A stretch of 64,000 nucleotides of DNA from positions 1,568,001-1,632,000 of the forward strand of contig OZ253462.1 in NCBI GenBank assembly GCA_965261395.1, written 5' to 3'. Under the pieces are notes generated by a model that was not told where the DNA came from, searched no databases, and saw only the letters and a list, made by a program, of their open reading frames with translations. The position numbers and the translations under genes are program-made. How positions within the stretch are numbered: the stretch's first letter is position 1; the number at the start of each line of letters is the position of its first letter. Source of the stretch: Candidatus Latescibacterota bacterium. GTDB taxonomy: Bacteria; Latescibacterota; UBA2968; UBA8231. Below are positions 16,318 through 20,665 of the stretch, piece after piece.

Positions 16318-17409
16318 TCAAAAATCCATCGCCGGCGGTCCCGCGTAGCCAATGCTCTGCCACCCAGCGACATCGCCGCCCGTGAGGCGATAGGGGTGCG
16401 GATACAGCTTCAGCGTGCGGTCCGCAAAAGGCAGGGACACCCGCTCGTGCTCCCGATGGGCCGAGCGCACCAAGGCGATAGCCACTTCGAGCGAGTGGCG
16501 ATAGTCGTCGCCGCTGCTATACGGCTCGGTGCCGACCTGATGGGCGCGTATCAGGCGCTCGACCGTATAGGCAAAAGCGTCCGCCGCTGACCGATCTAAA
16601 AAGTCGGGATACACCGGAGAAGCCGCCGCGCCGGTCCCCTCGATTAATACGGGCCGTGGACGCGCCAAAAAAACCTGCCCACGCTCGCCAACGACCGAGA
16701 TAAAGGTCGGCACGCGGCCATCCGGCTCAGGGGCGACGATCTCGCAGACAATGCCGCCGCTCAGACCCAAGCGGCCGTACGCAGGTACATCCCCCTCCTC
16801 TATAGGAGTGCCTTCAGCCACGTACCCCGGCTCCGCCGGCAAGGTGTACCCTTCCACCCATTCCACATCCATCCCAGTGAGGATGCGCAGCGCAGCAATC
16901 TGCACGCAACCGCCACCCGACACCTCGGTCGGCAGCCCACCCGGAATCGCCGCCGAGGTCAACCGTCCAATGTGCCCCTGCCGCACCCACTCGACCACCT
17001 CGGGCATATACGGCGTCGCCCATCCGGCCTGAGCGCAACCGAACAACGTGCCGTGCTCCCCGCAGATGCGGATCATTTCGTCCGCCTCGTGTAGCTGGTG
17101 AGAAATCGGCTTCTCGCAGGAAACCACTCGCACGCCAGCGCGAGCGCAGGCGGTGACGCAGGGATAGTTCTGGCTCACCGGGACCACTGCGGAGACAATG
17201 TCGGGCACTTCGGCCGCCAAAAGGCCGTCGAGATCGTCGTACACCTTCTCCACGCCGTAGCGCCGGGCAATGGCATCCCGCCGCTCTCTGGCGCGATCGA
17301 CGAGGCCGACAATCGTGCAATTGGGATGGGTGGCGTAGGCGCGCGTGTAGTAGCGGCCCCACGTGCCGGCCGCGCCGACGACGGCCACCCGGTATTGTTT
17401 ATTGGTCAT
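16318..17409 (-). CDS. Gfo/Idh/MocA-family oxidoreductase
   Basis: YRVAVVGAAGTWG and CEKP motifs; AGGAGG RBS. Confidence 0.9.
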   Translation of the reverse strand: MTNKQYRVAVVGAAGTWGRYYTRAYATHPNCTIVGLVDRARERRDAIARRYGVEKVYDDLDGLLAAEVPDIVSAVVPVSQNYPCVTACARAGVRVVSCEKPISHQLHEADEMIRICGEHGTLFGCAQAGWATPYMPEVVEWVRQGHIGRLTSAAIPGGLPTEVSGGGCVQIAALRILTGMDVEWVEGYTLPAEPGYVAEGTPIEEGDVPAYGRLGLSGGIVCEIVAPEPDGRVPTFISVVGERGQVFLARPRPVLIEGTGAAASPVYPDFLDRSAADAFAYTVERLIRAHQVGTEPYSSGDDYRHSLEVAIALVRSAHREHERVSLPFADRTLKLYPHPYRLTGGDVAGWQSIGYAGPPAMDF

Positions 17410-17470
17410 GTTAGCCTCCTGATTGACGGGGATAGAGGTCGCGGTTATATTTTTGCGCGGAGAATGAATA

Positions 17471-17530
17471 ATGCAGACCCTACGCGCAGATCGCCACTAC
17501 TATTATACCTCGCTTGATAGAGAGGGGTAG
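17471..17530 (+). CDS. tyrS leader peptide MQTLRADRHYYYTSLDREG
   Basis: GGAGA RBS (17459-17463) 7 nt before ATG; TAC TAT TAT at 17498-17506; stop at 17528-17530. Confidence 0.75.
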   Translation: MQTLRADRHYYYTSLDREG

Positions 17531-17562
17531 TGCGTTTGCTTTATTGTCTCAACCGCGTGTAC

Positions 17563-17589
17563 AAGCCCCTGATTACAGGGGCTTTTTTT
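17563..17589 (+). terminator. intrinsic terminator (attenuator) in the tyrS 5' leader
   Basis: AAGCCCCTG-ATTA-CAGGGGCTT plus T tract, ending 23 nt before the tyrS ATG; no other plus-strand gene upstream. Confidence 0.88.
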
Positions 17590-17612
17590 ATGCCTATAAA
17601 TAAGGAAATGTA

Positions 17613-18860
17613 ATGAACATCATACCCGATCTTCAGTTCCGCGGCCTGATCTACCAAGCCACCGACCTCGACGGCCTCGCTGAGCGCCTTGCCGCCGGTC
17701 CGATCGTGCTCTACAACGGCTTTGACCCGACCGCCGACAGCCTGACGGTGGGCAACCTCGTGCCGATCCTGCTCCTGCGCCGCTTCCAGCTCGCCGGCCA
17801 CAAAGTCATCGCCTTGGCTGGCGGCGGCACCGGCCTGATCGGCGATCCAGGCGGCAAGACCGAGGAGCGCCAGCTCAATGCCACCGACGTCGTGGCCGAG
17901 TGGACGCAGCAGGTCAAAGCCCAGCTAGAGCGCTTCCTCGAATTCGACGGCCCCAACCCCGCAGTGATGGTCGATAACCACGACTGGCTTGGCCAACTCG
18001 CGGCCATCGACTTTATGCGCGACGTCGGCAAGCACTTTCCAGTCCCCTACATGCTGGCCAAGGACTCGGTCGCCTCGCGCCTGGAAACAGGCATTTCCTA
18101 CACCGAGTTCAGCTACATGGTGCTACAGGCGTATGACTTCTTGGTCCTCAATAAAGAATACGGCTGCGAGTTGCAGACCGGTGGCTCTGACCAGTGGGGC
18201 AATATCACCGCCGGCACCGATCTGATCCGTCGCTCCGCCGGCAACCGGGCCTTTGGCCTGACCTGCCCGCTAGTGACCAAAGCAGACGGCACCAAGTTCG
18301 GCAAGACCGAGGCGGGCACGGTCTGGCTCGACGCCGCGAAGACCTCGGCTTACCAGTTTTACCAGTTCTGGATCAACGTCGAGGACCAGAAGGTCATCGA
18401 TTACCTGAAAACCTACACCTTCTTGGAGCAAGACGCGATCCTCCAACTCACCGAAGCCGTCCGCGACCAGCCCGAACGGCGCGAGGCCCAGCGCACCCTC
18501 GCTGCCGAGGCAACAACCCTAGTCCACGGGGCCGATGCGACGCGACGGGCCGAAAACATCTCGCATGCACTTTTTTATGGGGCGTTTCAGGATCTATCCG
18601 AGGAGGAAATCCTCGAAGGCTTTGACGACGTGCCAACGCACGCGATGGGGCAGGAGGAACTGGGGCTGGTCGATCTGCTCGTCGCGGCCGGCGTCTCGCC
18701 CTCCAAGCGCCAAGCCCGCCAAGACGTGCAAAACGGCTCAATCTACATCAACGGCGAGCGCTGCACGGACATGGCGCGAAGCATGCGGTGCCAAGAGGGC
18801 CTACACGGCAAATACCTGATCGTGCGCCGAGGCAAGAAGCAGTACACCCTCGTCCGCTAG
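17613..18860 (+). CDS. tyrS: tyrosine--tRNA ligase
   Basis: YNGFDPTADSL, GGSDQWGNI and KFGKT motifs; C-terminal S4-like domain. Confidence 0.97.
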   Translation: MNIIPDLQFRGLIYQATDLDGLAERLAAGPIVLYNGFDPTADSLTVGNLVPILLLRRFQLAGHKVIALAGGGTGLIGDPGGKTEERQLNATDVVAEWTQQVKAQLERFLEFDGPNPAVMVDNHDWLGQLAAIDFMRDVGKHFPVPYMLAKDSVASRLETGISYTEFSYMVLQAYDFLVLNKEYGCELQTGGSDQWGNITAGTDLIRRSAGNRAFGLTCPLVTKADGTKFGKTEAGTVWLDAAKTSAYQFYQFWINVEDQKVIDYLKTYTFLEQDAILQLTEAVRDQPERREAQRTLAAEATTLVHGADATRRAENISHALFYGAFQDLSEEEILEGFDDVPTHAMGQEELGLVDLLVAAGVSPSKRQARQDVQNGSIYINGERCTDMARSMRCQEGLHGKYLIVRRGKKQYTLVR

Positions 18861-18871
18861 GAATCTGGGCT

Positions 18872-20665
18872 TTATTCCCACTCCACCGTGCCCGGCGGCT
18901 TGTGGGTAATGTCGTAGAAGACTGCCTCAATTCCCGCTAGCGCCAACAGCCGCTCGCACACGTCGTCCAAAAACGCCTGCGGCAATGTGCAAAAGCGTGC
19001 GGTCATAAAGTCGGAAGTCGCAATCGGCCGCAGCACCACACTCTCTTGGACTCCATCCGACGACAGCGGCAGCAGCACCGTTGGCATCTGGGTTACTTCC
19101 TCCATCAGCCCGTGGCGCTCCAACGCCTCCATGCTAATGGCATCGGCCCGGCGCAGGAGATCGAGCCGGTCGCGGGTTAAATACCCCACCTTGAGGCTTT
19201 GCTGCGGCCGCGGTATCGGCCCCAGCAGGTATATCACCCGATTGATCGACGGGAAGTTATTAGTCAGCTCGGTGGACAGCGCCTCCAGCGTCTTCCACTC
19301 GCTCTGGCCAGAGACCACCGCTGGATGCGCGTAGGTCCGCGCATCCCCCTGCACGCCGACGCTGCGCAACGGCAGCACATCGAGCGCTAGGCCGAATGTT
19401 GACGCCACCTTTTGCGCCTCAGCGACCGTCTCGGGTGCTACGTTCTCCGCGCTGGGCCCCTCGCTGCACAAGACCCGGACCGCCAGCCCCGGCCCTGGGA
19501 ACGGATGCCGCCAGACCAAGTGGTGCGGCAAGCCGAGCGTCTCGCCCAAGGTGCGCGCCTCGTCCTTGTAGAGCTGATCTAGCGGCTCGACGACCTTGCC
19601 CTCGGCCAACAGCTGATCGATGACGCCGACTCGATTGTGGTGGGTCTTGATGACCGCTGCGTTTTCCGTGCCGCCGGACTCGATAGTATCCGTGTAGAGC
19701 GTCCCTTGGCCCAACAGCCACTCGTCCGGGTCCAATGCCAGCGCCGCTAGCGCCCGGTCGCGGACGCGGATGAACTCCTCGCCGATCCGCAGCCGCTTCT
19801 CCTCTGGGTCGGCAATCCCCTCCGTGGCGGCGAGGAATTCCGTGCTGGCATCGACAACTTCTAGATTGTGCAGACCCGCCCCCTTCATCAGCCGCTCGAC
19901 CAGCGCGGTCTCGCCCTCGCGCATAAAGCCGTTGTCAATGTGCAAGCCCAGCACCCGCTCTGCGCCCAAGGCGCGGTTGAGCAGGAGGAACGCCACCGAC
20001 GAATCGACCCCACCGCTGACGAACAGAAAGACGTTGCGCCCCTTAGCCTGCTGCTGGATCCGCTCTATCACCTGCTCGATGTAGCGCTCCATCGTCCAAC
20101 TCCGCTCCGCGCCGCAGAGCATGGCGAAGTTATCGAGGATGTCCATGCCCCGGACGGTGTGCGTTACTTCTGGATGGAACTGCAAGCCGTATATCTTGCG
20201 CTCGGCGTCGCCCATTGCCGCGACCGGGCAGTCCTCGGTCGCGCCCAAGACAGTAAACCCGGGCGGCAACGCCGCAACGTGATCGCGATGGCTCATCCAC
20301 ACCCGCTCGCGTGCGTCCAACCCGCCTAGTACCCCCTCTGCCTTGTGGACTTGCAAATAGGCCGCACCAAACTCGTGGGTCGTCCCCCGCTCGACTTGGC
20401 CACCCAAGCGGTGGCAGAGCAGTTGGTGGCCGTAGCACAAGCCCAGCATCGGCTTGCCCATCGCCAAAATTTCGGGATTGTACGCCGGGGCTTGCGGGTC
20501 ATAAACGCTGGCCGGTCCGCCCGACAGAATCAGCCCGTCGGCGTCCTGCAAATCGGCTACCGCAGTCTCCGGCGAGCGGATCTCAGCATGGACGCGGAGG
20601 CGGCGAATGCGGTTGGCGATCAGGTGGGCGTACTGCCCGCCGAAGTCGAGGACGACGATGCTCAC
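18872..20665 (-). CDS. guaA: GMP synthase (glutamine-hydrolysing)
   Basis: LDFGGQY, GLCYGHQ, QFHPEV, SGGVDS, IKTHHN and KPPGTVEWE motifs. Confidence 0.97.
   Translation of the reverse strand: MSIVVLDFGGQYAHLIANRIRRLRVHAEIRSPETAVADLQDADGLILSGGPASVYDPQAPAYNPEILAMGKPMLGLCYGHQLLCHRLGGQVERGTTHEFGAAYLQVHKAEGVLGGLDARERVWMSHRDHVAALPPGFTVLGATEDCPVAAMGDAERKIYGLQFHPEVTHTVRGMDILDNFAMLCGAERSWTMERYIEQVIERIQQQAKGRNVFLFVSGGVDSSVAFLLLNRALGAERVLGLHIDNGFMREGETALVERLMKGAGLHNLEVVDASTEFLAATEGIADPEEKRLRIGEEFIRVRDRALAALALDPDEWLLGQGTLYTDTIESGGTENAAVIKTHHNRVGVIDQLLAEGKVVEPLDQLYKDEARTLGETLGLPHHLVWRHPFPGPGLAVRVLCSEGPSAENVAPETVAEAQKVASTFGLALDVLPLRSVGVQGDARTYAHPAVVSGQSEWKTLEALSTELTNNFPSINRVIYLLGPIPRPQQSLKVGYLTRDRLDLLRRADAISMEALERHGLMEEVTQMPTVLLPLSSDGVQESVVLRPIATSDFMTARFCTLPQAFLDDVCERLLALAGIEAVFYDITHKPPGTVEWE

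Follow-up and report, generated by a model that had tools for sequence, protein, structure and literature searches.

Organization of the tyrS leader region

The window analyzed here, a stretch of 64,000 nucleotides from the genome of a Candidatus Latescibacterota bacterium (assembly GCA_965261395.1, contig OZ253462.1, positions 1,568,001 to 1,632,000 of the forward strand), carries the gene tyrS for tyrosyl-tRNA synthetase (TyrRS), preceded by a short open reading frame (ORF) with consecutive tyrosine codons and by an intrinsic terminator. The host genome is a single contig of 6.5 Mb. The tyrS product was identified as a TIGR00234 equivalog with a score of 399 bits against a cut-off of 113.8, and it was the only TyrRS match in the genome. 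The gene 5′ of the leader (16318-17409) lies on the opposite strand, and the terminator at 17563-17589 is for that reason not the terminator of this neighbor.

The elements of the leader region are listed in Table 1. The original prediction for this DNA was a leader-peptide attenuator composed of a GGAGA ribosome binding site, an ORF at 17471-17530 with the codons TAC TAT TAT, a terminator and then tyrS, and all of these parts could be read directly in the sequence. The three tyrosine codons, which are the putative regulatory codons, occupy 17498-17506 within MQTLRADRHYYYTSLDREG. The terminator stem comprises 9 bp, of which 6 are G-C pairs, and is closed by a loop of 4 nt. From the end of the stem to the tyrS start there are 28 nt in the window; most relatives have 21-54 nt, and two loci of other genera 156-159 nt. 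Folding of the leader region is more favorable than that of its shuffled copies (z = −3.7, with 1 of 200 shuffles as good).

The promoter-like site upstream of the leader gave 10 of 12 matches to a sigma-70-like pattern and was the sole such site in a scan of 17000-19200. In an alignment of 23 same-genus leaders the −10 hexamer is invariant and the −35 hexamer nearly so, and hexamers of the type TTGAC-N17/18-TATATT are also present upstream of the leader in other genera. From the position of this site we infer that the leader transcript starts at about 17458. In agreement with the prediction that tyrS has no promoter 3′ of the terminator, no promoter-like site was found in the 28 nt between the two, and the hexamers that are conserved are the upstream ones.

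Table 1. Elements of the tyrS leader region in the window and of the aspS locus L170
Element	Positions	Strand	Description
Promoter-like site	17423-17451	+	−35 TTGACG (17423-17428), 17-nt spacer, −10 TATATT (17446-17451)
Shine-Dalgarno sequence GGAGA	17459-17463	+	7 nt 5′ of the leader ATG; GGAG conserved in the same-genus alignment
Leader ORF MQTLRADRHYYYTSLDREG	17471-17530	+	19 codons; ATG at 17471, stop codon TAG at 17528-17530
Segment 1	17495-17514	+	His and Tyr codons, then ACCUCGCU; partner is segment 2 if free of ribosomes
Segment 2	17519-17539	+	Core AGGGGU (17523-17528), overlapping the stop codon and the sense codons just before it; partner is segment 1 or 3
Spacer strand	17534-17550	+	Able to pair with the ribosome-binding region of the leader (17460-17478)
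Segment 3	17555-17571	+	Terminator 5′ arm (17563-17571) and CGCGUGUAC upstream of it; antiterminator with segment 2
Segment 4	17576-17589	+	Terminator 3′ arm (17576-17584) and T7 tract (17583-17589)
tyrS with ribosome binding site AGGA (17603-17606)	17603-18860	+	Coding sequence 17613-18860, 415 aa
Leader ORF at locus L170	125-199 of L170
aspS at locus L170	284-2044 of L170

Conservation of the leader and its tyrosine codons

Of 41 relatives searched for TyrRS, 40 have an orthologue, as do 120 of the 132 genomes of the class. Reading of the tyrS upstream DNA covered 29 loci within the genus and 39 in 17 further genera of the family, as well as 20 from three sister families and 9 from another class of the phylum. 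Within the genus the leader ORF and the terminator were present at all 29 loci (L001-L023, L071-L076), with two to six Tyr codons and with TAC and TAT interchanging. For the other genera of the family an automatic finder recovered ORF and terminator at 28 of the 39 loci, and in 22 of these 28 the ORF has two to six Tyr codons, as in MTRTIAYRYYYYASGG, MALKSYYYRLEKQYGG, MQTSHTYQYYYSHRHLGGC and MKPIYRYYHLGTSGG. The tyrosine run on which the original prediction was built is thus kept in relatives.

Four more loci with a longer terminator were recognized by eye (L051, L054, L056 and L061). At L058 and at L036, which is cut by the contig end, the terminator and the G-run that characterizes segment 2 are present and no start was identified, and L063 has an ORF with two Tyr codons followed by a hairpin without a T tract. 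The leader accompanies tyrS despite a different upstream neighbor at L010, L016, L017 and L019-L023. No leader was found upstream of tyrS in the 20 loci of the three sister families, where tyrS directly follows another gene, or in the 9 loci of the other class. With the TyrRS query used, the other families of the phylum returned no match at E 1e-40.

The frames chosen as leader ORFs contain 50 TAY codons and the other two frames 2 and 6, a count that is biased since the choice of the ORF favored Tyr. Tyrosine was therefore recounted free of such a choice, by taking every ATG ORF of 10-45 codons ending near the terminator in one representative per genus (15 genera). Exactly one such ORF exists in 13 of the 15 representatives; that of the window has two and one representative has none. 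Tyr accounts for 47 of the 305 residues in these ORFs (15.4%) compared with 3.1% in a proxy proteome of genome ORFs of at least 400 codons. The nominal binomial p of about 2e-19 overstates the case because the sequences are kin. Tyr is the most enriched residue of the leaders (5.4-fold), followed by Arg and Thr at about 2.2- to 2.4-fold, and the peptides have diverged nearly everywhere but in the Tyr codons, the adjacent Arg codons and the terminal Gly codons.

Several further features of these loci were observed. In most genera the Tyr codons have Arg codons as neighbors (RY, YRY or RRYRR, often as CGA TAY; loci L031-L068; Arg 2.2-fold enriched), and in one genus the single Tyr is found in DRRYRR. 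In one genus of the family (L054, L056 and L060-L068) the leader ATG lies about 7 nt 3′ of the −10 hexamer, and these transcripts may be leaderless because of this short distance. Leaderless transcripts with leader peptides are reported for Streptomyces in passages of PMC8079986. The TyrRS match at G106:C1:1164558-1165919, the start of which lies in L076, consists of two pieces, residues 1-234 and residues 228-414, separated by about 105 nt within a single frame of 469 codons, which suggests from the sequence that this tyrS carries an in-frame insertion; its leader is intact. At L028, in a sister family, long tandem arrays of the heptamer GTCTCCC occupy the space between the preceding gene and tyrS.

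Alternative helices and the proposed attenuation mechanism

Three mutually exclusive helices were computed for the leader RNA with RNAfold. Helix 1:2 consists of 17495-17501:17526-17532 (7 bp, CACUACU with GGUAGUG), 17508-17511:17522-17525 (4 bp, CCUC with GAGG) and 17513-17514:17519-17520. Helix 2:3, with −14.8 kcal/mol, consists of 17523-17528:17565-17570 (6 bp), 17530-17534:17558-17562 (5 bp) and 17537-17539:17555-17557 (3 bp). Helix 3:4 is the terminator, with its 9-bp stem and −16.1 kcal/mol. The antiterminator pairing of AGGGGT (17523-17528) with GCCCCT (17565-17570) in the terminator 5′ arm is the one that had been proposed. A protector pairing also exists, as proposed, in a slightly different register: the core of segment 2 had been matched with TACCTC directly after the Tyr codons, and the fold uses CCUC with GAGG together with CACUACU and GGUAGUG.

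Each leader of the family was also folded individually with a 28-nt ribosome mask placed on the last Tyr codon and with the RNA ending before the terminator 3′ arm, as it would during transcription. Ribosome footprint sizes were taken from general knowledge. A predicted antiterminator then takes up the terminator 5′ arm in all but one of the 57 family leaders; for the remaining leader no partner was obtained. In these 56 leaders the partner, the G-run, sits between −25 and +8 nt relative to the end of the stop codon, and in most of them segment 2 is predicted to pair as well with the stretch that the Tyr-stalled ribosome would cover. The last Tyr codon lies 13-30 nt 5′ of segment 2 and the stop codon lies within segment 2 or adjoins it. 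In many genera the antiterminator is computed to be more stable than the terminator (e.g., −33 versus −28, −26.6 versus −16.4 and −21.9 versus −14.8 kcal/mol). The terminal G-run is read in varying frames across genera, as Q-G-stop, R-G-V-stop or W-G-stop, or lies 3′ of the stop codon, and because its reading frame differs it reflects a constraint on the RNA rather than on the peptide.

The terminator stem is well supported by covariation. Across genera 94.5% of the cells in the stem are paired, 5 pairs and 31 cells are changed on both sides, and none of 500 shuffles was as high on three measures. When the sequences were tabulated from the C-run of the 5′ arm, the partners in segment 2 and in segment 4 were both found to change with segment 3. 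At offset 4 of the arm, 17 sequences have T:A, 4 have T:G and 10 have C:G; a T in the arm goes with A in both partners and a C with G in both. The arms are 7 nt longer in four genera, and segment 2 is correspondingly longer there. A covariance model of the antiterminator matched 51 family loci, of which 27 belonged to its seed, and none of 12 sister-family loci. Of the covarying stems expected in orthologous leaders, the terminator is thus strongly supported and the antiterminator varies at one pair only, as detailed below.

The stalling and the response to tyrosine, which we infer from the parts, their conservation, their geometry and the alternative pairings computed here, would proceed as follows. 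Transcription would start from the putative promoter at 17423-17451 and a ribosome would initiate on the leader ORF. If charged tRNA(Tyr) is scarce, this ribosome would stall with one of the three Tyr codons in its A site, covering segment 1 and leaving segment 2 free. Free segment 2 would pair with newly made segment 3, so that the terminator 5′ arm is occupied, the 3:4 hairpin does not form and RNA polymerase continues into tyrS. If charged tRNA(Tyr) is plentiful, the ribosome would reach the stop codon inside segment 2 and cover this segment, allowing the 3:4 terminator to form and transcription to halt at the T tract. If there is no translation at all, helix 1:2 would form and termination would likewise follow. 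The modeled placement fits this trp-type logic: a Tyr-stalled ribosome is predicted to free segment 2 and a ribosome at the stop codon to cover it, just as the original prediction had reasoned.

Further long-range helices involve the start region of the leader (17460-63:17547-50, 17467-71:17541-45 and 17473-78:17534-39). This long-range pairing of the Shine-Dalgarno and start region with the spacer strand is kept in the RNAalifold consensus of 23 same-genus leaders, with a few compensatory changes. Pairing of the spacer strand 17534-17550 may act as a lock against further initiation once the leader peptide has been finished.

Data from RNA libraries were available from four metatranscriptome runs, all in the form of Logan contigs of related strains, in which starts, ends and strand are unreadable. 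Contigs of near relatives bridge the leader, the terminator and the tyrS start (run X16, record 5, 17317-17803; run X18, record 12, 17390-17708). They give a weak hint of co-transcription of leader and tyrS, weak because contigs do not prove a single transcript and DNA may be present. Some bridging contigs extend 5′ of the predicted promoter into the divergent gene, as DNA or merged transcripts might. In run X15 one contig ends at 17546 and the next starts at 17600, leaving the terminator hairpin uncovered; this gap is not evidence.

Taken together, we conclude with a probability of about 0.85 that the region upstream of tyrS is a conserved classical ribosome-mediated transcription attenuator with a leader peptide, most likely sensing charged tRNA(Tyr). 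Several observations count against this conclusion, and most of them concern the antiterminator. In the MAFFT alignment 77.3% of its cells pair, a percentage that was reached by 101 of 500 shuffles, and a single pair (13 cells) is changed on both sides. This sole varying pair goes between AU, GU and GC; the core of the helix, G4:C4, never varies, and the G-run changes register from genus to genus. RNAalifold yielded no more than 3 G-C pairs from the cross-genus MAFFT alignment of segments 2-3, owing to G-runs aligned in different registers. Realignment with the covariance model changed the values only to 78.7% paired and 14 cells at one pair, leaving the register problem uncured.

The folding of individual sequences has weaknesses of its own. 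Since each leader is optimized alone, these folds lean towards pairing, and the shuffle control gave values of 0.00-0.97 (at most 0.36 for leaders with a partner), with 0.15 for the leader of the window. With one ribosome masked, the partner of segment 2 in the minimum free energy fold of the window is the 5′ portion of the leader at 17473-17483 and not segment 3. According to these models, for the antiterminator of the window to be the best fold a second ribosome would have to occupy this 5′ portion, or kinetics would have to favor it. Within the genus the antiterminator (−12 to −17 kcal/mol) does not exceed the terminator (−15.5 kcal/mol) in stability; the two are roughly equal. Conservation is also incomplete: 6 of the 28 automatically found leaders of other genera have only one Tyr, of the types ...DRRYRR... 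or ...ERRYTS..., a single Tyr codon also occurs in some of the leaders of one genus found by eye, and 4 of the 39 family loci have no leader (L050, L055, L053 and L069, two of genus g15 and one each of g10 and g11).

Leaders with a single Tyr codon, of which the family has six to ten, are what would be expected if the element responded to translation regardless of the amino acid, as an attenuator or upstream ORF that reports general ribosome speed or availability or aids reinitiation, with incidental Tyr codons. The enrichment of Arg and Thr by about 2.2- to 2.4-fold agrees with this, and passages of PMC4833913 describe leader genes without regulatory codons as common. Such an unspecific element is nevertheless improbable: Tyr is the residue enriched most and survives codon swaps and changes of run length (2-6) amid divergence of the peptide, its codons are invariably found at the same 13-30 nt from segment 2, and the thrS, aspS and trpE leaders of the same genome are each rich in the matching residue (Asn in the case of aspS). 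The complete layout from promoter to terminator would also suit an independent gene for a small RNA or small protein, with tyrS transcribed from a separate promoter 3′ of the terminator. For this a TATAAA-like hexamer at 17595-17600 could be invoked, as could the two other-genus loci in which the terminator is far from tyrS. We regard this arrangement as quite improbable, given the short interval before tyrS in the window and in most relatives, the lack of a promoter-like site in this interval of the window, the constant association of the leader with tyrS whatever the upstream neighbor and, as a weak point, the RNA-library contigs that span the terminator; moreover, a transcript starting after the TATAAA-like hexamer would lose the conserved AGGA ribosome binding site.

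If the leader were a T-box-like or TRAP-like RNA switch, structured to bind a protein or uncharged tRNA(Tyr), the ORF would be irrelevant. Such a switch comes to mind since tyrS is the classic T-box gene and since the closest TyrRS sequences outside the phylum are from Firmicutes, where T-boxes were detected above the Rfam cut-off at 5 of 12 Firmicutes-labelled loci. However, no T-box match was found in 17300-17750 at E up to 10 (Rfam RF00230), nor in the whole genome, with control genomes giving matches. In addition, the leader RNA is only about 130 nt long and conservation tracks the reading frame (in-frame TAY, start codon, stop at segment 2), making this explanation very improbable. The Rfam scan suggested for the leader returned neither a T-box nor another family: all matches with E up to 10 were sub-threshold, with alignments resting on the terminator hairpin. 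Phe_leader (RF01859) scored 24.1 bits against a gathering cut-off of 55 and Trp_leader (RF00513) 17.5 bits against 41, and both identities were rejected.

The translated frame might finally be the overlapping ORF MNNADPTRRSPLLLYLA (17464-17517), which would sense leucine through CTA CTA TTA and is also present in some same-genus relatives, e.g. L004. To this we assign almost no probability, as its ATG abuts the Shine-Dalgarno sequence with 0-nt spacing and is missing in many same-genus leaders, which read GAATAAATGATG; the frame is not kept in other genera, 13 of the 15 genus representatives having one ATG ORF only and that of the window having this ORF and the Tyr frame, and the gene downstream is tyrS. 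The evidence as a whole favors an attenuator read by a ribosome translating the Tyr codons.

Related leaders in the genome and known attenuation systems

A genome-wide scan for a short ORF enriched in one residue, followed by a terminator and then a long ORF, gave four convincing cases: tyrS (YYY), thrS (PTPTTATTTTT), an aspS (NNNN) and trpE(G) (WW.W). The leader ORF of thrS (TIGR00418, 682 bits; G000:C1 ~2275190-2275403, minus strand, locus L169), MISAMLTVASAQRLSGFPSGPTPTTATTTTTMCAG, has 8 Thr in 12 residues and is followed by a terminator, with the thrS start 24 nt beyond. A terminator of the same type (CCCGCTGTC/CCCACTGTC) is present in nearly all of 16 family genomes and a Thr-rich leader in at least 7, which come from several genera. 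In sister families (L192-L194) a different conserved hairpin with a T tract, without a Thr-rich ORF, lies 5′ of thrS.

The aspS with a leader is a second paralogue (NF001750, 804 bits; G000:C1 2562904-2564820, plus strand, locus L170), sharing 44% identity with the genome's other aspS (~4086419-4088164), which has no leader. Its leader MAMMTRQNDRMQNNNNPLVPLRVF is followed by a terminator, and the orthologues in five other genomes have Asn/Asp-rich leaders, three of which (L204-L206) are organized as two tandem leader-terminator units. This paralogue may be a non-discriminating aspartyl-tRNA synthetase (AspRS) for the synthesis of Asn-tRNA. A promoter-like TTGACA, the leader MNFSPYIRRWWRAWYSPIREKGASIR and a terminator of 12 bp lie 5′ of the fused anthranilate synthase gene trpE(G) (NF010081, 1009 bits; G000:C1 3052222-3054556, plus strand, L171) and make up an ordinary Trp attenuator.

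The closest TyrRS sequences outside the phylum share 58-61% identity, and the 8 tyrS loci not labelled as Firmicutes gave no T-box above the Rfam cut-off. It is tempting to view the leaders of tyrS (Tyr), thrS (Thr) and the AspRS paralogue (Asn, which would mark this enzyme as serving tRNA-dependent asparagine synthesis) as a family-wide set of ribosome-read attenuators that replaces T-boxes on synthetase genes. Such a set would have originated within a single family whose tyrS has its nearest outside relatives among Firmicutes genes under T-box control, and a single Arg-flanked Tyr (RRYRR) could suffice as a sensor in the right context. This extension is tentative and we would not favor it over its opposite.

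The mechanism proposed for tyrS is known classical attenuation, and what may be new is the use of tyrosine codons and the control of tyrS. The suspected novelty of the element is thus reduced to this part, given that leader-peptide attenuation of synthetase genes is established for other amino acids. A Tyr-codon leader for tyrS was not found in full-text searches of the literature; one could be among the predictions of a 2010 survey of synthetase-operon attenuators. A close precedent is the E. coli pheST operon, for which passages of PMC1262725 and PMC11802643, citing Springer et al. 1985, describe leader-peptide attenuation. As in those descriptions of pheST/pheM, a short leader ORF rich in cognate codons, alternative hairpins and an intrinsic terminator precede a synthetase gene. 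The E. coli system differs in its Phe codons and its gamma-proteobacterial host and has no sequence relation to the leader described here, which combines Tyr codons with tyrS in an uncultured lineage. The Rfam family Phe_leader represents the pheA leader and not that of pheST. With the E. coli trp operon (trpL), as outlined in passages of PMC11802643, the tyrS leader shares the 1:2, 2:3, 3:4 logic, regulatory codons in segment 1 and a stop-codon ribosome that blocks segment 2, whereas trpL uses Trp codons and controls a biosynthetic operon.

Outside the Proteobacteria, leader peptides with cognate codons precede monocistronic synthetase genes in Streptomyces, where passages of PMC1262725 list trpS2 and leuS and passages of PMC8079986 list leuS, trpS, alaS and thrS of S. 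lividans. The cited passages name none for tyrS or Tyr; several of the transcripts they describe are leaderless and lack a clear U-tract terminator, and most cases are predictions supported by RNA-seq. A Tyr-containing leader peptide in an aromatic amino-acid attenuator is found in Corynebacterium glutamicum, where aroR (Phe-Tyr-Phe) precedes aroF and, according to a passage of PMC11802643, is unaffected by tyrosine availability. As described there, aroR differs from the leader of the window in having a lone Tyr between two Phe and in preceding a biosynthetic gene.

If the attenuator operates as proposed, tyrosine and tyrS would join the short list of synthetase genes attenuated through leader peptides, in a candidate phylum without a cultured member. 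The variants within the family form a natural mutational series in the number of Tyr codons (one to six), in terminator length and in the stability of the antiterminator relative to the terminator (lower or higher), with which one could examine how many regulatory codons are needed and how helix energies set the gain. For annotation, such leaders flag short ORFs that gene callers miss, and the Asn-rich leader hints at the function of the second AspRS paralogue.

In Bacillus subtilis and other Firmicutes tyrS is controlled by a T-box, an RNA sensor that binds tRNA and acts through read-through of an intrinsic terminator. The regulated gene, the signal (a shortage of charged tRNA-Tyr) and the terminator read-through are the same in both systems; the sensor is a tRNA-binding RNA in the T-box, whereas here the proposed sensor is the translating ribosome. 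Together with the thrS and aspS leaders, this suggests that a lineage lacking T-boxes can reconstruct the same circuit with the ribosome as its sensor.

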